Shown here: piece by piece, positions 7,733 through 60,801 of the stretch | How the letters are laid out: each line of letters begins with the position of its first letter | Position numbering within the stretch: position 1 is the stretch's first letter | Origin: an uncultured Phycisphaerales bacterium | GTDB lineage: Bacteria > Planctomycetota > Phycisphaerae > Sedimentisphaerales > Anaerobacaceae | Reading direction: 5' to 3' | Assembly: GCA_963718665.1 (NCBI GenBank) | Contig: OY970359.1 | Coordinates: 384,001-448,000 of the forward strand | Length of the DNA stretch: 64,000 nucleotides | Notes under the pieces: generated by a model | Database searches by the model: none | What the model was told of the DNA's origin: nothing | What the model saw: the letters and a program-made list of their open reading frames with translations, nothing else | Program-made: the position numbers and the translations under genes

Positions 7733-8119
7733 ATGAAGAAACAGTTAATGGCACTGGTTGGGGTGGTCGCGGTTTGTATGCTGCTGGCGGTTGTGAGCAA
7801 TGTGATGGCAGCAGACGTAAACCAGCCAAAGGAAAAATCGAAGGACAGCAACAGTTTGGTCATAGGTATCGTCAACGTAGTTAAAGGCAACGACGGTAAT
7901 TTCACTGAAATAAAAGTGGTGGTGTCACGCAGGGAACTCATATACAAGGTGGTTCTCGATGCAAAAGGCATAGAGCTGGGAAAGACAATGGCTGACAAAA
8001 GAGCCAGAATCGAAGGAACCATAGAGCAAAAAGGTGATGTTCAATGGCTGACCGTAAAAACGTTTAGCGACCTGAAACCCAGGGGAGATGCCAAGCCGAA
8101 AGCAAAACCAACCCAGTAA
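7733..8119 (+). CDS. Exported hypothetical protein
   Basis: AAGGAGA RBS; signal peptide MKKQLMALV...VMA. Confidence 0.8.
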   Translation: MKKQLMALVGVVAVCMLLAVVSNVMAADVNQPKEKSKDSNSLVIGIVNVVKGNDGNFTEIKVVVSRRELIYKVVLDAKGIELGKTMADKRARIEGTIEQKGDVQWLTVKTFSDLKPRGDAKPKAKPTQ

Positions 8120-8223: not shown

Positions 8224-11200
8224 TTATGCGTTTTGGCCGTGGCATTTTTTGTATTTTTTGCCTGAGCCGCAGGGACAAGGGTCATTGCGACCGACCTTGG
8301 GGCCTTCAAGCTTAATCTGCTTGACCTTTATCTCGCCCTGAGGCGCCTGCGCGGCGGCACGCTGACGCTCGGCCATAGCAAATTGCCCGACTTGGTCGTG
8401 CGCGGTCTGGCTCACCTGCCAAACGCTTCTGGCTCTTACGCCGGCTTCGAGATGAACCTTGAAAACGATATCCGTCACCCGCTCATCGATATTGGACAGC
8501 ATCTCGCTGAACATTCGGTGCCCTTCCCGCTTGTATTCGGTCTTCGGGTCCTTCTCGGCCCATGAACGCATCCAGATACTGTCCTTGAGATGGTCCATAT
8601 TATAAAGATGGTCTTTCCAGGCGGTGTCATAAACCTGGAGCAGGACGTATCTTTCAAGCTCGCTTAATTCCCTTCGCAGAAACTCCTTGCCCGCATGAAG
8701 GATTATATCTTTTCGCGTTTCAATATCCGCGAGCCGTTCGGGCGTAAACGCCGTCCCGAAGCGGTTATTGGTCCATTCGGTAATCGCCTGCGTATCAGGC
8801 AGGTGAAGCGCATCATCGATTTCCTTTGTCAATTGACCATTGCTGTAGGACTCGCTCAATTCCAGAAGCTGCCTGTGCAGCGTCTGCGGCTGGATTTGCT
8901 GTATGCCCTCGGCGGTAAACTGGGCGTTATATTTTCTGTTCGCCCAGTTCGCCAGCGATTCAAATCCATATACATTTGCCCCCTGAGGTCCATACACCAT
9001 ATTCATCGCGAACTCGACTGGATATTCGATTTCACGTCTTTTATACCTTGCCCTGATTTGCTCCGCGATAAGTCCCTCAATCTGCTCCGGCTTTAACGCT
9101 TTCAGATCATCAACGCTCAGCTTTATATCGAACTTAGTGCGAATCCATTCCACAAGCCGGCGAATCGCGAAATCAGGTTTCAACGGCTCAGCAACAGGTG
9201 AACAGTCCTTTTTCTCAATCTGCTCATGTGCCGCGGCAATCAATTGCTCTTCGAGCTGCTCAGGCGTCATCTGCTTGACCTTGTTTATGCTCAAGCTGAC
9301 GCTGAATGCGCTCATCGCCCATTTGCACAGACCCGGAATGTCCCACGTTGACTGGTCTTCGTAATCCTCGAAGTATTCGCCAATCGACAGCGATATATCG
9401 TTGCCCGCGCTTTCCTTGGCCTTGTCCTTGATGATTCGCTCAATCTCTTCGGCCGACAATTCCTCTATTTCAGATGGTTTCAATTCAACGCTGAACTGGC
9501 TCGATGCCCATTCACAGATGCACTTAACGGGATACGCCCTCTCCAGCATTACCTGACAGGTCTTGGCGGTAGTGCCACCTATCATTTCATCGATAATTTC
9601 TTTAAGACCCTCGCCTCCCAGGATTTTTCGCCTGCGGGAATAAAATATCTTGCGCTGATAATCCATCACCTCGTCGTAATCGAGCAAACTTTTTCGCGTC
9701 TCGAAGTTTCGCTCCTCGACCTTTTTCTGCGCCTTGGCGATGCCCTTGCTGATTCTTTTGTGATAAATCGGCTGCCCTTCTTCCCAGCCAATCCACGACA
9801 ACGCCTTTACCGTCCATTCCGGCGCAAACGTCCGCATCAATTCATCGTCGAAGCTGAGGAAGAACTGGCTCGATCCTTTGTCACCCTGTCTGCCGCAGCG
9901 TCCGCGAAGCTGGTTGTCGATACGCCTTGCCTCGTGGCGTTCGGTACCGAGAACGTGAAGCCCGCCTATATCAGCGACGCCCTCTCCGAGCTTGATATCC
10001 GTTCCCCGGCCTGCCATATTAGTCGCAATCGTAACGTTGCCGTGCATTTTCCCGTCACGACCCTGATGTTGAAAGCCCGCCTTCGCGACGATTTGCGCCT
10101 TGCGCTCATGCTGTTTGGCGTTAAGCACCTCGTGCTCAAGGCCGAATCTCCTGTTAAGCGCCTCCGATAACATTTCATTTTTCTCAACGCTCACCGTTCC
10201 AACCAGCACGGGTCTTCCCGAAATGCTGATATTGTTCAACTCCTCCAATATCGCGGTGAACTTTTCGGGCATCGACTTATAAATCACGTCTTCCATATCG
10301 TCCCTGATGCAGGGCTGATTGGTCGGCATAACAACGACTTCCAACCTGTAAATTTTCATAAACTCTTCGGCTTCCGTCATCGCGGTCCCCGTCATACCCG
10401 CAATCTGGCCATAGAGTTTGAAGAAATTCTGCAGCGTAATCGTGGCAAGCGTCTGGCTCTCCTCCTTGACCTGCACGGCCTCTTTCGCCTCGACCGCCTG
10501 GTGCAGACCGTCCGACCACTGCCTGCCGTGCATCAGTCGCCCCGTGAACTCATCGACGATGACGACCTTGCCTTCCATTACGACATAATCTTTTTCCTTT
10601 TCGAAAACTACATGCGCACGCAGCGACTGCTCAAGCATGTGAGGCCATTCCATATTCGAGCCGGTGAAAAACGACCCGACTCCCGCCGCCTCCTGTGCCG
10701 CGCTGATTCCCTCGTGCGTCAAATGCACTGCCTTTCGGTCTTGCTCAACCTCGTAATACTGGGTTGCGCCGCCGGTTTTGCTCTGCGCCTCTTCAAGCTC
10801 CTTTTCGAGCCGTTCTATCGTGGCCTGCGTCTTTTCGATACGACTTTTATCTTTGGACTTTTTGGCCTCGCTCAATTCGCCATAAGCATTGGCAAGGGTC
10901 TTTTCCGACGTATCAATCTGCTTTTTGACCCGGTCGTAACCACTCTGCAGCCCGATGAGTTTTCTCGCTACGTCGTCAGCCCTTTTGTATCTGCTCACGT
11001 CATCGAACGCGGGTCCCGATATAATCAAAGGTGTTCTCGCCTCATCAATCAGAATCGAGTCAACCTCGTCGATGATTCCGTACTGCAAATCTCCCTGCAC
11101 CATGTGCTCAATCGACAGCTTCATATTATCGCGCAGATAATCGAAGCCGAATTCGTTGTTGGTGCCGTAGGTAATGTCGCTTTCGTATTGGTTTTTTCTC

Positions 11201-11709
11201 TCCTCGCCTGCGGTATCCATATCCGCCTGTATCGCGCCGACGGATAATCCAAGCGCGTTATAAATAGGCCCCATCCATTCGGCGTCGCGCTTCGCGAGGT
11301 AATCATTTACGGTAACGACGTGAACGTGCCTGCCCGTCAGGTGCACAAGATACGCGGCTAACGTCGCGACCAATGTTTTACCTTCGCCGGTCGCCATTTC
11401 CGCGATTTTGCCTTCGTAGAGGACATTGCCGCCGACCAACTGCACATCGAAATGCCTCATATTGACTGTGCGTCTGGCCGCCTCACGAACAACGGCGAAC
11501 GCCTCGGGCAGCATATCTTCCGCCCTGCCGCCATTTTTGAGCTTATCCTTGAATTCGGCTGTCTTTGCCTTCAACTGCTCATCGGTCAACTGCTTAACCT
11601 GCTCTTCAAAGACGCCTGCCTCGCGGGCGACGGTCATATACGTCTTAACCAATCGCTCGCTGCGTGAGCCGAATAGCTTTACAATCCTTTTGCCGAAATT
11701 CTTTAACAT
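8224..11709 (-). CDS. secA: Preprotein translocase ATPase SecA, 1161 aa, with insertions
   Basis: [50 protein letters not shown] motif [19 protein letters not shown]. Confidence 0.98.
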
Positions 11710-12089
11710 CAGCGTTCAGCGGGTAGCGTACAGCGTTCAGGATTAAACATCCTATACAGCATCGCGCCCACTTCATCCATCAACGATTCTATATTTGCGT
11801 TTTTATCAGTATACCCCAAATCCACGGATAAAAGAAGCTGCGTTTGCAATTCAAGCAACGAGCCATAAGCGTGGCGTAAAAACTGATTATATTCGGGCTT
11901 ATGTTTCCTCCCATATCCTTCTGCTATATTAGACGGGATAGAAACAGCCGCCCTTCTCATTTCCTGAACCAGACCGTATTGCTCATTGTTCGGAAATGCT
12001 TTTGTTATTTTATAAATTTCCAGGACCAGCCGGTATCCTTTTTGCCAGACAATCAGGTCCTTAAAAGTTTTTGTTTTCATACTTTCCAT
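11709..12089 (-). CDS. Four-helix-bundle protein (23S rRNA intervening-sequence protein / bAvd-like family)
   Basis: FKDLIVWQK, [28 protein letters not shown]; stop overlaps the secA start (TGATG). Confidence 0.92.
11710..11740. repeat. Heptamer array CAGCGTT/CAGCGGG/TAGCGTA at the 3' end of the four-helix gene
   Basis: cagcgtt cagcggg tagcgta cagcgtt cag. Confidence 0.85.
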
Positions 12090-12093
12090 AGTT

Positions 12094-12234
12094 CTGTCCG
12101 CTGTTTACTCTTCTCTGTCCCTGTCCGCTGAACGCTGTACGCTGTTCTTTGTTTACTGTTTTTCCTGCACGCCGTCCGCTGTACGTTGTTTACTATCTTT
12201 TCTGTACGCTGAACGCTGACCGCTGTACGCTGAT
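12094..12234. repeat. Long degenerate heptamer array (CTGTACG/CTGAACG/CTGTCCG), inverted relative to 11710-11740
   Basis: e.g. ctgtccg ctgaacg ctgtacg; ctgtacg ctgaacg ctgaccg ctgtacg. Confidence 0.85.
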
Positions 12235-12240
12235 TCGGCA

Positions 12241-12269
12241 GTATCTTAAACTCCGGTTGTATTGTCAAG
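12241..12269 (-). promoter_or_regulatory. Putative sigma70-type promoter for the four-helix/secA transcript
   Basis: Minus strand TTGACA-N17-GATACT; near-duplicate at about 13122-13150. Confidence 0.45.
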
Positions 12270-12323
12270 GATGGGGAAAGGTGTCGAGCGATTTTTCGAG
12301 GGGAACCTGTAGAAATGCTTTTT

Positions 12324-12407
12324 TCAAACCTTTAATTTTTCTAACATCACCGCGCCGAGGCCGAGAAGTAATAGCGTGGCGGGTTCAGGGCAAGATAGGG
12401 AACTCAT
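12324..12407 (-). CDS. Mini-ORF consisting almost only of a PEP-CTERM sorting signal (MSSLSCPEPATLLLLGLGAVMLEKLKV)
   Basis: Manual translation; PEPATLLLLGLG matches the PEP-CTERM pattern; AAAGGAG directly abuts the ATG, so spacing is atypical. Confidence 0.5.
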   Translation of the reverse strand: MSSLSCPEPATLLLLGLGAVMLEKLKV

Positions 12408-12458
12408 CTCCTTTCAAATGCGATGGATTTTTAGAGCACGACAAAAAAGCGTATTCTT

Positions 12459-12487
12459 TTGACGGAACATTATCCAGGATGTAAAAT
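12459..12487 (+). promoter_or_regulatory. sigma70-type promoter of the 29-aa peptide gene
   Basis: TTGACG-N17-TAAAAT. Confidence 0.6.
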
Positions 12488-12536
12488 AAAACAGAGAAGC
12501 AAAATAATAGAAACTTAAATCTTAAGGAGACGAACG

Positions 12537-12626
12537 ATGCTATTGATGAGCACTTTAAACTTGATACTTATAGGTGTGGGGGTCGTAGTGTTGGTTTTGG
12601 CTATTATCCTGAAAGTGAAAAGTTAA
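12537..12626 (+). CDS. 29-aa single-TM peptide (MLLMSTLNLILIGVGVVVLVLAIILKVKS)
   Basis: AAGGAGA RBS 6 nt upstream, own promoter, downstream hairpin; below the ORF-track cutoff. Confidence 0.65.
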   Translation: MLLMSTLNLILIGVGVVVLVLAIILKVKS

Positions 12627-12660
12627 GGTCGAGGAAAGAATCCACCATTTGACAAGCCGG

Positions 12661-12686
12661 AAAAAAGGCGAGATTTACCGCCTTTT
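12661..12686. terminator. Bidirectional terminator-like hairpin
   Basis: AAAAAAGGCG-AGATTTAC-CGCCTTTT. Confidence 0.7.
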
Positions 12687-12740
12687 GGCTGCTATCACAG
12701 CACCGAGGCCGAGAAGCAAAAGCGTGACGGGATTGGGGCA
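12675..12740 (-). pseudogene. Orphan PEP-CTERM remnant (CPNPVTLLLLGLGAVIAAKRR*) with no start codon
   Basis: Manual translation; nucleotide similarity to 12347-12394; in-frame stop upstream. Confidence 0.55.
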
Positions 12741-12748
12741 AGTATTGC

Positions 12749-12815
12749 TGTCTGGTGTCTTGGGTCTGTGGTCTTGGGTCTCAACTGAACGCTGTCCGCT
12801 GCACGCTGAACGCTA
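12749..12815. repeat. Two abutting heptamer arrays (TGTCTTG/GGTCTGT type, then CTGAACG/CTGTCCG type)
   Basis: tgtctgg tgtcttg ggtctgt ggtcttg ggtctca; ctgaacg ctgtccg ctgcacg ctgaacg. Confidence 0.75.
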
Positions 12816-12816
12816 T

Positions 12817-13083
12817 TTAACGTTTATTCTCAAGCAATTCACACATTTTTTTCCTGGCATAATAACGATTAAGCCCCTGGCTGCGGCTCTTTTGAATTTT
12901 TACTGATAGGCCGCTGGTGATATGTTTTAGATAAACGCAGGTAGAGCTTTTATTTACTTTCTGGCCGCCTGAACCGCTGCTTCTAACGAACTTTTCTTCT
13001 ATATCTTTTTCGAACAAATTGCATTTCCGCATACGCTGCGCAAGCTCTTGCTTTTTCCGTTCTGTAATTCCAAAGTTAATCAT
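12817..13083 (-). CDS. RF-1-domain (GGQ) peptidyl-tRNA hydrolase, ArfB-like, apparently lacking the C-terminal tail
   Basis: FVRSSGSGGQKVNK, RSQGLNR. Confidence 0.85.
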   Translation of the reverse strand: MINFGITERKKQELAQRMRKCNLFEKDIEEKFVRSSGSGGQKVNKSSTCVYLKHITSGLSVKIQKSRSQGLNRYYARKKMCELLENKR

Positions 13084-13270
13084 AGGTTGTCAGTTGTTTT
13101 CTGTTTTTTCTGTACGCCGAATACTATCGTAAACTATGGTTGTGTTGTCAAGGACAGGGAAAAGAGGGTATGCTAAAATGGGTAATTGAGCCGTTTTCCC
13201 GATAAACCATCCCTTCTTTTCAGCCGATATAATCTCATAGCGAGATATGGATTTCAAAAGGAGAACTGCC

Positions 13271-13711
13271 ATGCGTTTCAGATTAGCAACAACGGAGGAC
13301 CTGAAAATAATTAAATCGTGGTTGAAAGAGGAATTTGACCGTTCTGGGACAGGAAATGGCTTTTACAACAATACAAACCTGATAGAGGAGGGGCAGAAAA
13401 GAGGCGAACTTACTGTAGCAATAGACAACAAGGATAATTTACCTGTGGCCTTTTATCTCGGAAACGGATGCTCTGCTGAAATTCTTGAAGTTAGACCAGA
13501 TTATCGCGGAAAAGGTATAGGGCGTTTATTCGTGGAACACATTATTAAATGTGCGAAAAACAAGGGCTATCCTGCTATATCTGGTTTTTGTTGTCCCGAA
13601 GAATCGCTTCCTTTTTGGTTAAAGATGGGCTTTAAACGAACGGGCAATTGGGTGAAATTCAATGTATCGACGAAATCGGACGAGAATACGACATGCTGTG
13701 GTTACGGGTGA
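13271..13711 (+). CDS. GNAT family N-acetyltransferase
   Basis: EVRPDYRGKGIGR acetyl-CoA motif; FWLKMGF; AGGAGA RBS before 13271. Confidence 0.85.
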   Translation: MRFRLATTEDLKIIKSWLKEEFDRSGTGNGFYNNTNLIEEGQKRGELTVAIDNKDNLPVAFYLGNGCSAEILEVRPDYRGKGIGRLFVEHIIKCAKNKGYPAISGFCCPEESLPFWLKMGFKRTGNWVKFNVSTKSDENTTCCGYG

Positions 13712-14027: not shown

Positions 14028-14519
14028 ATGGTTAATCGTAAATACAAGCCCGGACTTCCCCGCAAGGGATGGCATAGGGTCGATGAATGGGACTTACGTG
14101 AAGATGGTTCATCACCAGATGAAACTAATTATGCCACCTGCGAAGCGTGCAACCATTACCCTGTCCGGTATGTTCACGTTTTACAACACGATAAATACCC
14201 AGACAAGATTAAAGTTGGCCGTGATTGTGCGGGAAACCTAACTGAGGATTATAAAAAACTACAGGTCAGACAAACTAACAGAGAGGCCGAAAAATTAAAG
14301 CGTTTATTGCGACGGTGGAAGACATCTCGTTTGAAAGTCGAACGTTTCCTCTTAACTGTGTTCCCAGATAAAAATAAGCAGGGCTTTTGGAAGTGGGGCT
14401 TTGTCAATCGCTATACGGGTTATACCAGAATCAGTAATCGCTCTTATCCAACGATTGATGAGACCAAACTTGAGTGCTTGAATGAATTATTTGCTAAATG
14501 GTTATCTAACATTGTTTAA
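14028..14519 (+). CDS. Hypothetical protein with a CxxC...H...C putative metal site
   Basis: CEACNHYPVRYVHVLQH...VGRDCA. Confidence 0.65.
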   Translation: MVNRKYKPGLPRKGWHRVDEWDLREDGSSPDETNYATCEACNHYPVRYVHVLQHDKYPDKIKVGRDCAGNLTEDYKKLQVRQTNREAEKLKRLLRRWKTSRLKVERFLLTVFPDKNKQGFWKWGFVNRYTGYTRISNRSYPTIDETKLECLNELFAKWLSNIV

Positions 14520-14573: not shown

Positions 14574-14604
14574 CTGTCCGCTACCCGCTGAACGCTGTCC
14601 GCTG
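14574..14604. repeat. Heptamer array; inverted copy of 11710-11733
   Basis: ctgtccg ctacccg ctgaacg ctgtccg ctg. Confidence 0.8.
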
Positions 14605-14614
14605 AAAACTATTT

Positions 14615-16864
14615 TTATCTTCTTCTTTTGGCTTTTTTGTGTTTTCGGCGGACGGCGAATCTTCCGCCGCCGTGTTTGGCGCGTTTGCCCTTTTCTTTGG
14701 GCCTGAGCTGTGGACGGGAAGGATGAAGGCCGCCTTCGAGGATAGCTAAAACAGGCGTGACGTTTAACTGCCTTGCGGCGACATTTACGGAAACGATGCG
14801 GACTTTCATCGGCTGTCCCAGGCAAACAATCCGCCCTGAATGTCTGCCTACGATGGAGCCATGTTTGGGGTTGTATTGCCACTGGTCAGGGCCTAAATCC
14901 GCAAGCTGCACGAGGCCCTCGATACCGAGTTTACGCGACTGGACAAATATGCCGAAATTCGTCAGGCCCGTAACAACACAATCCATCTCCTCGCCCACCT
15001 TATCTGCCAGCATTTGCAGAATCAAAACCGCCTTCAATTCGCGCTCTGCGTCGTCGGCTCGCTCCTCGGTAAACGTGATGTGCCTGCCGATATCCGCCAA
15101 CTGCTGATTATCAGGCATCCAGTCAGAGCCCGCTTCGAGGTCGCCTCGCAAATAACAATCCAAGGCACGATGAACGAGCAGGTCGGCGTATCGCCTAATC
15201 GGGCTTGTGAAATGCCCATATAATTCCGAGGCGAGCGCGTAATGACCTATATGCAGAGGTGAATACTGCGCCTTTTCCATACTTCGCAAAACGACGAGGT
15301 TTATCGCAAGAGAGCTGTCGGTGCCTTTGACGGAATTAAGAAGCTGCTGCAGCGAGGCCCGGTCTGGCAAACGGGGCAAGCTCAATCCCAATGACCGGAC
15401 AAGCTCGGCAAGATTTCGCATAGTAAAGGCATCCGGCTCAGGGTGAACCCGCCTCATAACCGGGATATTATTGCGGTCCAGAACCGTCGCCACGGCCTCG
15501 TTGGCCTCGACCATAAACATCTCGATTATCGTATGCGGATAACTATTATCCGCCGGCTGGCCATCGATAACCCTGCCCGCTTCATCGAAAACAAGCTCCG
15601 TCTCAGGCAAATCGAGGTGCAGCATACCCTCTCTATCGCGGCGTTTCTCGATTATCCGCGCAAGCGTATTCATATCATTTAATAAAGGCATCACTTCGGG
15701 TTTTATATCTTTGGTGTGCCCTTTTAGGAAGCGGTCAACCTGCTGATAAGTCAATCGCTGGGTCGAACGGATAATACTGTTGCGATAATTGCGATTTACG
15801 ACGTTACCGTCATTGTCGTAAGCAATATATGCGCTTTTGACTAATCGCAATTGGTCGGGCTGCAAACTGCAAACGCCGTTGCTCAGCATCTCAGGCAGCA
15901 TCGGGATGACCCTGCCCGGAAGATATATGCTGTTGCCCCGCTCCTTGGCTTCCTTATCCAAAGGCGTTCCGGGCGGCACAAAAAACGTAACATCGGCGAT
16001 GTGAACACCCAATAGCCAGTTGCCTTTCGCGTCGCGTCCCAAACTAATCGCGTCGTCAAAATCCTTCGCGTCGAGCGGGTCAATCGTAACTATGATTTTG
16101 TTGGTTATATCGTCCCTGTCGCGTATATTTTCCGGCTTATATTCGGTCGCGGCCTTATGCGCCTGAAAAATACAGGAGTCGTTGAATTCGCCCGGAAGCT
16201 GGAACTGGTGAGCAATCGAGGCGATTTCGCTTTCGTATCTGCCCGCTTTGCCCAGCACCTCGACAATCACCCCGCGAGCGAGACGTCTTTCTGTGGGATA
16301 AGATAATATCTCGATGACCACCTTGTCCTTTTCTCTGGCGTTTTTTGCAGTAACGTCATCGACGGTTATGGGGTCAGTCGCTCCCGAACCATCCGGCTGT
16401 ACAAGCCAGCCCTCGGGCTTTCGCATCAGCGTGCCTACAAAGCGGTTGCGTCCCCGCTGAACAATCTCGATGATTCTGCCGCTGTAACGGATTTGCTCTC
16501 CCCTGGTAGATTTCTCGACGACCTTGGCGGCAACGACATCGCCCGTCATCGCCTCCATCGTATCTCCAGGCGGGATAAATAAATCGACGTGGGCCGCCGA
16601 TTCCAATGGCGTAACAAAGCCGAAGCCCCTTGGATTGGCGCGGAAGGTCCCGATGATTCGTCCCGCAAGGCCGGCAAGCCCGACTACGCTGCCGTCGCCC
16701 AGGACGACGTGGCCCGCGTGATGAAGCTCATCGAACGCTCGCTTGAACTCGGGATAATCAGCATGGTCGATACCCAACGCCCCGGCCAGCTCGCTGACCT
16801 TGACCGGCTTGTAGTCGGCGTGCTTCAGTAACTTGATGATTTTCTTCTTATATACTTCTCGCAT
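14615..16864 (-). CDS. rnr: Ribonuclease R
   Basis: TIDPLDAKDFDDA, VHIADV, HFTSPIRRYADL, S1 domain, basic tail; start MREVY is likely. Confidence 0.96.
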   Translation of the reverse strand: MREVYKKKIIKLLKHADYKPVKVSELAGALGIDHADYPEFKRAFDELHHAGHVVLGDGSVVGLAGLAGRIIGTFRANPRGFGFVTPLESAAHVDLFIPPGDTMEAMTGDVVAAKVVEKSTRGEQIRYSGRIIEIVQRGRNRFVGTLMRKPEGWLVQPDGSGATDPITVDDVTAKNAREKDKVVIEILSYPTERRLARGVIVEVLGKAGRYESEIASIAHQFQLPGEFNDSCIFQAHKAATEYKPENIRDRDDITNKIIVTIDPLDAKDFDDAISLGRDAKGNWLLGVHIADVTFFVPPGTPLDKEAKERGNSIYLPGRVIPMLPEMLSNGVCSLQPDQLRLVKSAYIAYDNDGNVVNRNYRNSIIRSTQRLTYQQVDRFLKGHTKDIKPEVMPLLNDMNTLARIIEKRRDREGMLHLDLPETELVFDEAGRVIDGQPADNSYPHTIIEMFMVEANEAVATVLDRNNIPVMRRVHPEPDAFTMRNLAELVRSLGLSLPRLPDRASLQQLLNSVKGTDSSLAINLVVLRSMEKAQYSPLHIGHYALASELYGHFTSPIRRYADLLVHRALDCYLRGDLEAGSDWMPDNQQLADIGRHITFTEERADDAERELKAVLILQMLADKVGEEMDCVVTGLTNFGIFVQSRKLGIEGLVQLADLGPDQWQYNPKHGSIVGRHSGRIVCLGQPMKVRIVSVNVAARQLNVTPVLAILEGGLHPSRPQLRPKEKGKRAKHGGGRFAVRRKHKKAKRRR

Positions 16865-16959
16865 TTTAACCACTAATGGCTTGGCCATCCCTATCGGGAG
16901 ACACAAAGGCACTATTTTCTAATTTTACTTTGTGTCTTGGTGCCTTCGTGACTTTGTGG

Positions 16960-22128: not shown

Positions 22129-22204
22129 TTTATAATTTACTGTTTATGATTTATTATCCTCAAATTGTAAATCAAAAATAACAAATCGAAAATAGAAAAT
22201 AAAT
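22129..22204. repeat. Inverted pair of AT-rich heptamer arrays with no gene between
   Basis: tttataa tttactg tttatga tttatta ... aaattgt aaatcaa aaataac aaatcga aaataga. Confidence 0.6.
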
Positions 22205-34024: not shown

Positions 34025-34044
34025 AGAGCCACTCCATTTAAATT

Positions 34045-34118
34045 AGAATTTAGAATGTAGAATTAAGAATCGAATTAAGCGGTCTTATTTCTAAATTCTG
34101 AATTCTTCATTCTTAATT
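34045..34118. repeat. Inverted pair of heptamer arrays (AGAATTN / ATTCTNN)
   Basis: agaattt agaatgt agaatta agaatc ... attctga attcttc attctta. Confidence 0.75.
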
Positions 34119-34395
34119 GCTTATCGCCAATCCAAAGCCCGCGGTTAACCGGTTTTTGGCCACTGTCTTATGACGGCAAACAAACGGAAATTTCACTGGC
34201 AATATCGCCCGTAACATCTTATAATTGAACAAGTTAGCTAAATTAGGCGGGCTTTATATGCCGGTATGATTTGGCTGACGCGGTTGTTTTTATGGAAAGC
34301 AGGCCGTAATGGTCTTATAATGTACGTGGTAGTCGCTCGATGCGCGCGAGTATCGTATATCGAGAAACAGGTACTGAGTTTGGAGATTTGCAAGT

Positions 34396-59935: not shown

Positions 59936-60209
59936 TGATAACCTCACAAAGCATCTTCCGCCCGGCAAAGTTGACAGGCAAAGGTGTTATTCTCTTCCGG
60001 CCATAAGTTGGCAGTATACCGCTAAACTGGTCAGAAAAGCAAGAGTTTTAAGAATCCGCATCCCAAAATTTTACCCGCCCGCCATAAGGCGTCACTTGCG
60101 GGAGTAGTTTTAACGCAGGCGGGCCGCAATCCCAAATAAAAAATATGTTCAAGTGATTCGTTTTAGTGCTTTGAATTTGTTTCGGATTTAGGGTTTAGGA
60201 TTTCGGGTT

Positions 60210-60722
60210 TTAAGTGTCTGCCTCTTCGGTCGAACCACTAACCGTCTTTTCCTGTCTCGGCATCGCTATCGTCCCCGTCCGCGCGACGTTCTTTATCCCG
60301 TATGGCCGGCACATCTCGATAAACGCCTCGATTTTCTCCTCAGGCCCGCTTATCTCCACCATTATCGTCTTCTGTCCAATATCAACAACGTTGCCCTTGA
60401 AGGTCTCTATCAACGCCAGTATCTCAGGCCTCTTTTCCGCAGGCGCAGCGAAAGTTATCAGCATCAAATCTCTCGCGACCACCGTCTGGCCCGCAAAATC
60501 CTGGACCTTCACAACGGGTATTATCTTGGCAAGCTGTTTACGGACCTGCTCAAGCACCCTGTCATCGCCAATCACGACAATCGTCATCCGGCTAAGTTGC
60601 GGGTCCTCCGTCCGCCCGACGACTAACGAATCGATATTGAACGCCCTCGCCGCGAACATCCCCGAAACATGTGCCAAAACTCCCGGCTTATTCTCAACCA
60701 ACGCGCTTATTATATGTTTCAT
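60210..60722 (-). CDS. ilvN: Acetolactate synthase small (regulatory) subunit
   Basis: LVENKPGVL, FNIDSLVVG, ARTG. Confidence 0.96.
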   Translation of the reverse strand: MKHIISALVENKPGVLAHVSGMFAARAFNIDSLVVGRTEDPQLSRMTIVVIGDDRVLEQVRKQLAKIIPVVKVQDFAGQTVVARDLMLITFAAPAEKRPEILALIETFKGNVVDIGQKTIMVEISGPEEKIEAFIEMCRPYGIKNVARTGTIAMPRQEKTVSGSTEEADT

Positions 60723-60801
60723 AGGTCTTACCTTCCTGTCCCGGCATGCCTTTGGCCGGGATCCAGTTTTTACTTTTTACATTTTGATTTTTGATTTTCT
60801 T

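Follow-up and report, generated by a model that had tools for sequence, protein, structure and literature searches.

A four-helix-bundle gene within inverted heptamer arms between the predicted secA promoter and secA: a probable selfish cassette with the layout of 23S rRNA intervening sequences

The window (the whole 64,000-nucleotide stretch of DNA analyzed here) carries a cassette of 525 nt in the interval from the predicted promoter of secA to its start codon; within it, a four-helix-bundle gene is flanked by inverted heptamer arms. The cassette is a real feature with the layout of the ORF-bearing intervening sequences (IVSs) of 23S rRNA, but it lies outside rRNA. The reading we consider probable is that of a selfish cassette, exchanged among relatives and built like the rRNA intervening sequences, and not of an element controlling secA.

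The original prediction placed the gene between the likely secA promoter and secA, with a stop codon overlapping the secA ATG and a 3′ array encoding the last residues of the protein, and all three points are confirmed (Table 1). In the window allele the 3′ arm ends on the AU of the secA AUG. The roughly 140 nt of upstream 7-nt repeats also described do contain heptamers, but not as one unbroken array: they form two heptamer blocks within three 37-nt super-repeats with A-rich spacers. Across the genus the −10 box is recognizable in 19/20 loci, 17 nt after TTGACA, with close variants in three; in the remaining one (L018) it is overwritten by a hairpin. At 1161 aa the SecA protein is long and carries insertions that the NCBIfam models lack; its relatives are of similar length. 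The rpoB frames of three other genomes (L053, L054 and L055, from G007, G003 and G023) are 1440–1522 aa long and carry in-frame insertions, possibly inteins.

Table 1. Coordinates of the cassette and adjoining features in the window.
Feature	Position	Strand	Basis or distribution
−35 hexamer TTGACA, predicted secA promoter	12263..12268	(−)	Upstream of secA in 20/20 genus loci
−10 hexamer GATACT, 17-nt spacer	12240..12245	(−)	GATACT in 16/20 loci
Outer 5′ arm, 4.6 heptamers (CAGCGUA type)	12202..12234	(−)	Start approximates predicted transcript 5′ end
Inner 5′ repeats, heptamer blocks in 37-nt super-repeats; contain alternative 16-nt partner 12128–12143	12094..12201	(−)	
Four-helix-bundle gene, PF05635/TIGR02436, 126 aa	11709..12089	(−)	Profile scores, structure model, alleles
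3′ arm, 4.6 heptamers (CUGUACG type)	11708..11740	(−)	Inverted-repeat search, fold
TGATG stop/start overlap	11707..11711	(−)	Sequence; no Shine-Dalgarno-like site before secA in window allele
secA, host gene downstream of cassette	8224..11709	(−)	NF009538, 981 bits (cut-off 814)

The perfect 16-bp pair on which the original prediction rested its stem is real (11725–11740 with 12128–12143), but it is neither the longest nor the preferred one. The longest inverted pair joins the 3′ arm to the outer 5′ arm (33 nt, 85%), and this pairing is favored, with a duplex energy of −47.6 kcal/mol against −35.1 kcal/mol for the 16-bp pair and most pair probabilities above 0.9. In a fold from the presumed transcript start, the outer arm pairs with the 30 nt preceding the secA AUG, and the A and U of the AUG are themselves paired (probabilities 0.95 and 0.8). 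The region 11640–12300 of the minus strand folds with z = −3.49, none of 20 shuffles being equally stable, and 11400–13400 has no Rfam match. The proposal that the stem would sequester the secA initiation region is thus upheld in the computed fold, which buries the AUG. An inverted-repeat stem around the ORF, as required of ORF-bearing 23S rRNA IVSs, is likewise present by computation.

The small protein scores 114.6 bits against TIGR02436 (cut-off 24) and 126.9 bits against PF05635 (cut-off 33.8). Its predicted structure consists of four helices (pLDDT 91.5) and has the same fold as Xcc0516 (PDB 2GSC; TM 0.82, 43% identity) and BT_0352 (2RLD), to neither of which the accessible literature assigns a function. 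The title of 2GSC, as given in a reference list, names an assembly of five four-helix bundles, and the small protein is likely to be a pentamer like this 43%-identical relative. Family members also occur inside cas loci, according to the accessible part of one article (PMC3936711). Similarity to Avd is more distant (TM about 0.67–0.69, 13–14% identity), and both Avd models score below cut-off (NF033474, 32.4 against 80; PF22296, 26.4 against 40). The suggested relation to bAvd therefore stands as structural likeness (TM about 0.69, 14% identity) and not as family membership.

The first ATG/GTG position of the small gene is conserved across the four secA alleles that carry it. Its dN/dS is about 0.04–0.07 (dN 0.008–0.045), and by these rates the protein is under purifying selection and maintained. 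Synonymous divergence is lower than that of rpoB in 6/6 pairs (dS 0.12–0.90 against 0.21–1.35) and in most pairs comes to about half the value for secA and rpoB, in a comparison of six non-independent pairs and about 72 synonymous sites. By its low dN and reduced dS the gene is kept by selection and was probably exchanged between hosts after these had diverged.

Presence or absence of the cassette in relatives, the first check proposed, was surveyed in 23 other genomes of the genus. The secA start was found in 20 of these, one of which, at a contig edge, was dropped, giving 20 loci with the window. Six are empty, with 9 nt between the −10 hexamer and the ATG (L004, L007, L009, L012, L016, and L017). 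Ten carry a gene-less hairpin of one of three repeat types: heptameric (L002, L003, L015, and L018), of roughly 8-nt period (L001, L006, L008, L010, and L014) or other (L011). Four bear the gene (the window, L005, L013, and L019). With the secA ATG 9 nt past the −10 hexamer, the empty alleles would be near-leaderless; a genome-wide scan of promoter-to-ATG distances gave 13 scattered matches and no peak, so that support for this reading comes from the six empty alleles. A contig from an RNA run (X18) that skips 11713–12240 was considered as a sign of splicing and rejected: it has five other letters there and corresponds to a relative's empty allele, promoter included.

Slot state changes 12 times on an rpoB tree of 19 genomes, which does not separate gain from loss of the occupants. 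The four states tested were each incompatible with a single clade (p-AU 7e-5 or less), and four states coexist in one six-genome clade of about 95% rpoB identity. The gene-bearing state (4/20 genomes; p-AU 1e-5 for a clade) is sporadic among close relatives, a trait of ORF-bearing 23S rRNA IVSs. Comparison of empty with occupied alleles gave no target-site duplication, and the occupied alleles do not retain the 9-nt spacer, leaving no clean insertion point. Among 20 loci in other genera, one too short to judge, no gene copy abuts secA, and one partial match lies about 850 nt upstream. The four genomes with a gene-less heptamer hairpin, two of them 95–97% complete, contain no match to the small protein at E ≤ 1e-40, and the hairpin thus persists without a close protein copy.

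The high occupancy of the slot (14/20) could reflect a benefit to the host. A host may favor any stem-loop at the 5′ end of secA mRNA, for stability or for a switch from leaderless to Shine-Dalgarno initiation, with the gene as a hitch-hiker. We hold this to be unlikely. It accords with the 14/20 alleles, of four repeat types, in which a hairpin starts just past the −10 box, 10 of them with a Shine-Dalgarno-like site, but six of the 20 genomes, scattered over the tree, have no hairpin, 188 heptamer arrays occupy all kinds of sites genome-wide, and the small protein is itself under strong purifying selection.

Somewhat less probable still is a true mRNA intervening sequence, in which RNase III would cut the stem, free the small-gene RNA and leave a secA mRNA with a short leader. 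The predicted stem is of 30-bp scale and runs from the 5′ end to the AUG, an RNase III gene is present in the genome (G000), and the IVS of Coxiella 23S rRNA has an RNase III site at its first heptamer repeat, according to the available text of PMC4990558. However, the stem is mismatched every 7 nt, and cutting would compete with the coupling that the window allele apparently needs. Release by RNase III would be compatible with a selfish cassette, and the two readings are not exclusive.

The selfish-cassette reading draws on the same design at other loci. A further check had been to look for heptamer arrays beside four-helix-bundle genes, and the association was found: inverted arms (score of at least 12) surround 48 of 59 related genes, against 3/57 in the control. 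The 59 are the scorable part of 61 related loci, three of which precede secA and are probably repeats of loci already counted. Both arms are of the secA-cassette repeat type in 27/47 relatives at 60% identity or more, none reversed, and in 0/14 below 60%. Judged by record titles, Planctomycetota supply most of the loci, and Atribacterota and Omnitrophota some. Of the relatives at sites other than secA, the nearest (90–92%) sit ahead of a different gene, and the group at 65–75% identity precedes at least eight other genes, neighbors being distinguished by their first residues.

In a genus-wide arm alignment of 40/46 loci (six without a match to the query were dropped), arms are present in 33/40. 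The 5′ arm of one locus pairs with the 3′ arm of another in 67/76 pairs at 80% protein identity or more, a bin made up mostly of same-locus orthologues, in 26/50 at 60–80% and in 100/1434 below 60%. At one intergenic slot two protein clades occur, and two repeat types with them (L086/L089/L091 against L087/L093). L101 is a gene-bearing cassette at a different locus, and its 5′ arm agrees with the gene-less hairpin of L003 at 34/36 nt, the tail outside the repeats included. No other observation speaks as clearly for an origin of gene-less hairpins in cassettes and for their arrival at new sites. The loci thus present an element at unrelated sites with non-autonomous copies, by which IS and MITE elements are recognized. 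Four-helix-bundle genes flanked by arms of roughly 8- and 9-nt period, and gene-less hairpins of such arms, also occur (L174, L105, and L001/L008), so the design is not restricted to period 7.

Protein clade and repeat type co-vary in these sequences, for which co-inheritance is as good an explanation as binding. A residue-to-base code was tried and rejected: positions 6 and 11 track CGCT against CCCT arms (position 6 is T in 32/32 against L/A in 11/12, with one gap), yet CCCT as one clade is not rejected (p-AU 0.66), and co-variation of residue and repeat yields only one supported independent pair.

Heptamer arrays are abundant well beyond the cassette. Genome G000 (2.61 Mb) contains 201 arrays of period 7, compared with 24 and 16 for periods 6 and 8, and a stricter scan gave 188 of period 7 against none in a block shuffle. 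The arrays are not due to chance, but neither are they special to secA. The three PF05635 genes of G000 all lie within inverted arms, each gene with its own repeat type. An inverted counterpart lies no more than 700 nt from 37/185 arrays (control 4/185), and most arrays are solo. Gene-less hairpins show no RNA-strand bias, with 16 G-U against 13 A-C mismatches and the sense strand more stable in 9/16. The cassette holds no transposase, its sole ORF of a known family being that of PF05635.

Within the window, a gene-less inverted hairpin of another heptamer type, with 12 nt between its arms, lies at 34036–34123, and solo arrays of several types lie at 14579–14606, 22161–22202, 60179–60210 and 60767–60798, the first of them directly past the stop of a 765-aa ORF (14615–16912). 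An 88-aa RF-1-domain gene (12817–13165, minus strand), ArfB/PrfH-like but under the cut-offs of these models, has in front of it a second copy of the predicted secA promoter and a trace of a 5′ arm, and behind it arrays of two repeat types stacked together (12757–12814). It lies less than 2 kb from secA in 7/20 genus loci and keeps 92–95% nucleotide identity even in distant species. Two plus-strand ORFs, of 163 aa (14028–14519) and 128 aa (7733–8119), have no Pfam or NCBIfam match.

A dispersed family of HNH_3 + AP2 genes occupies 27 loci of G000 (e.g., L187:301–900 and L188:301–900), its copies about 40–63% identical to the query. A heptamer array lies within 400 nt of 13/27 of them (control, 45/336 ORFs of similar size), and their flanks are mosaic. 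These genes may be another selfish family and may donate a nuclease. They were rejected as a second cargo of the arms: inverted arms do not enclose them, a score of at least 14 being reached in 3/29 matches.

Could the arrays be written by the protein's own machinery? If the small protein were part of a repeat-writing machine, assisting a heptamer-adding polymerase in the manner of Avd, solo arms would be explained, and arrays of several types are indeed stacked. Structural likeness to Avd and the placing of the arrays also agree: the secA repeat type forms 43 clusters, and those located after a stop codon number 16 in 5′-arm orientation and seven reversed, or 13 against one without HNH-AP2 neighbors (by a crude ORF caller). 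Yet no RVT_1 reverse transcriptase was found in G000 (94.6% complete), many of its repeat types have no matching gene among its three family members, and deletion relics and slippage account for solo arms more simply. Such a machine is very improbable.

How is secA translated behind such a stem? The stop/start overlap occurs in two of the four gene-bearing genomes, the window and L005; the small genes of L013 and L019 terminate 84 and 46 nt ahead of secA. In RNA run X18, the contig of a relative shows nine extra nucleotides with a Shine-Dalgarno-like motif between arm and ATG, and no overlap. Among the 14 occupied alleles, 10 have such a site behind the 3′ arm, two have the overlap and two have neither. 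Overlap with the next ORF is found in 3/43 related loci, two of the three being this allele. Overlap and Shine-Dalgarno-like site are read as alternative ways of keeping secA translated behind the stem. A secA-specific regulator, in which the protein or the coupled ribosome would use the stem to gate the synthesis of SecA, is scarcely credible: in the window allele, where the predicted stem covers the AUG and a Shine-Dalgarno-like site is lacking, translation of secA would require the small gene, but half of the carriers and nearly all related loci are without the overlap, 16/20 genomes have no gene at the slot, and near-identical proteins precede unrelated genes. The link to secA appears incidental, and the cassette is likely not a secA control element. 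Where the original prediction spoke of a selfish or regulatory intervening cassette, the selfish, IVS-like part is retained, on the slot states and the same design elsewhere, and the secA-specific regulatory part falls away. Such cassettes should not be taken for regulators of the adjoining gene.

As a selfish cassette, the element would work as follows. According to the predicted fold, its arms pair into a stem that spans from where the transcript begins to the AUG of secA, with the gene in the loop, an arrangement shared with ORF-bearing 23S rRNA IVSs. In the window allele, ribosomes on the small gene would open the 3′ arm and, at the AUG that overlaps the stop codon, begin again on secA; hosts would accommodate the cassette by this overlap or, more commonly, by a Shine-Dalgarno site behind the arm. 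The small protein may bind its own arms as a non-catalytic adaptor. Spread at the secA slot would proceed by homologous recombination between relatives, new sites would be colonized rarely, using host enzymes, and internal deletion would give rise to gene-less hairpins and solo arms. Against this reading stand the missing insertion signature, the lack of a catalytic mobility gene, the many unpaired arrays and the mismatches without RNA-strand bias.

A bolder proposal, which we regard as doubtful, makes these cassettes mobile elements that need no transposase: the pentamer would read its own heptamer arms, at about one repeat per subunit, and cause the hairpin to be copied into the starts of transcripts and the junctions between stop and start codons. 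Repeat types would be rivals for the same slots, and the window allele would tie the translation of an essential gene to its own. Were this true, the dependence of essential-gene translation on the cassette gene would protect the cassette from decay.

The cassette links a large protein family of unassigned function with the unexplained heptamer excess of many genomes. At one essential-gene promoter it provides a natural allelic series, comprising empty alleles, three gene-less types, and the gene with either overlap or Shine-Dalgarno-like site, in which binding specificity, processing, translational dependence and mobility are directly testable.

Several known systems invite comparison. MITEs and REP-RAYT systems are autonomous/non-autonomous pairs of a gene-bearing element and gene-less hairpin derivatives, whereas the secA cassette has no transposase domain and no target-site duplication. 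Avd is a DGR accessory protein, pentameric and with a positively charged barrel, according to the available text of PMC6182149. Its fold (PDB 4DWL, 8UBB) is similar to that of the small protein; however, a linked reverse transcriptase, as in DGRs, is not found at the cassette, whose neighbors are secA and the RF-1-domain gene. Over-represented heptameric repeats of prokaryotic genomes (Mrazek et al., 2007, cited in PMC4692102; PMC4679880) share the excess of period 7, the intergenic location and the variability between close relatives, but in the accessible parts of these two articles they are tied to polymerase slippage or regulation and not to a gene cassette.

With ORF-bearing 23S rRNA IVSs the cassette has in common the protein family (S23p/PF05635), a gene inside a terminal stem, heptamers in the 5′ arm and a patchy distribution. 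An ORF-bearing IVS in Leptospira 23S rRNA was reportedly described by Ralph and McClelland in 1993. For Coxiella burnetii the available text of PMC4990558 describes a 23S rRNA IVS with a terminal stem, heptamer repeats (GACAGAT) in the 5′ arm and an RNase III site. The open-access literature searched describes cassettes of this design for 23S rRNA and none outside rRNA. Unlike these IVSs, the secA cassette belongs to the 5′ part of an mRNA that encodes a protein, between promoter and gene; its slot holds gene-less derivatives and competing repeat types at one site, and its ORF, under purifying selection, is joined to the next start codon.
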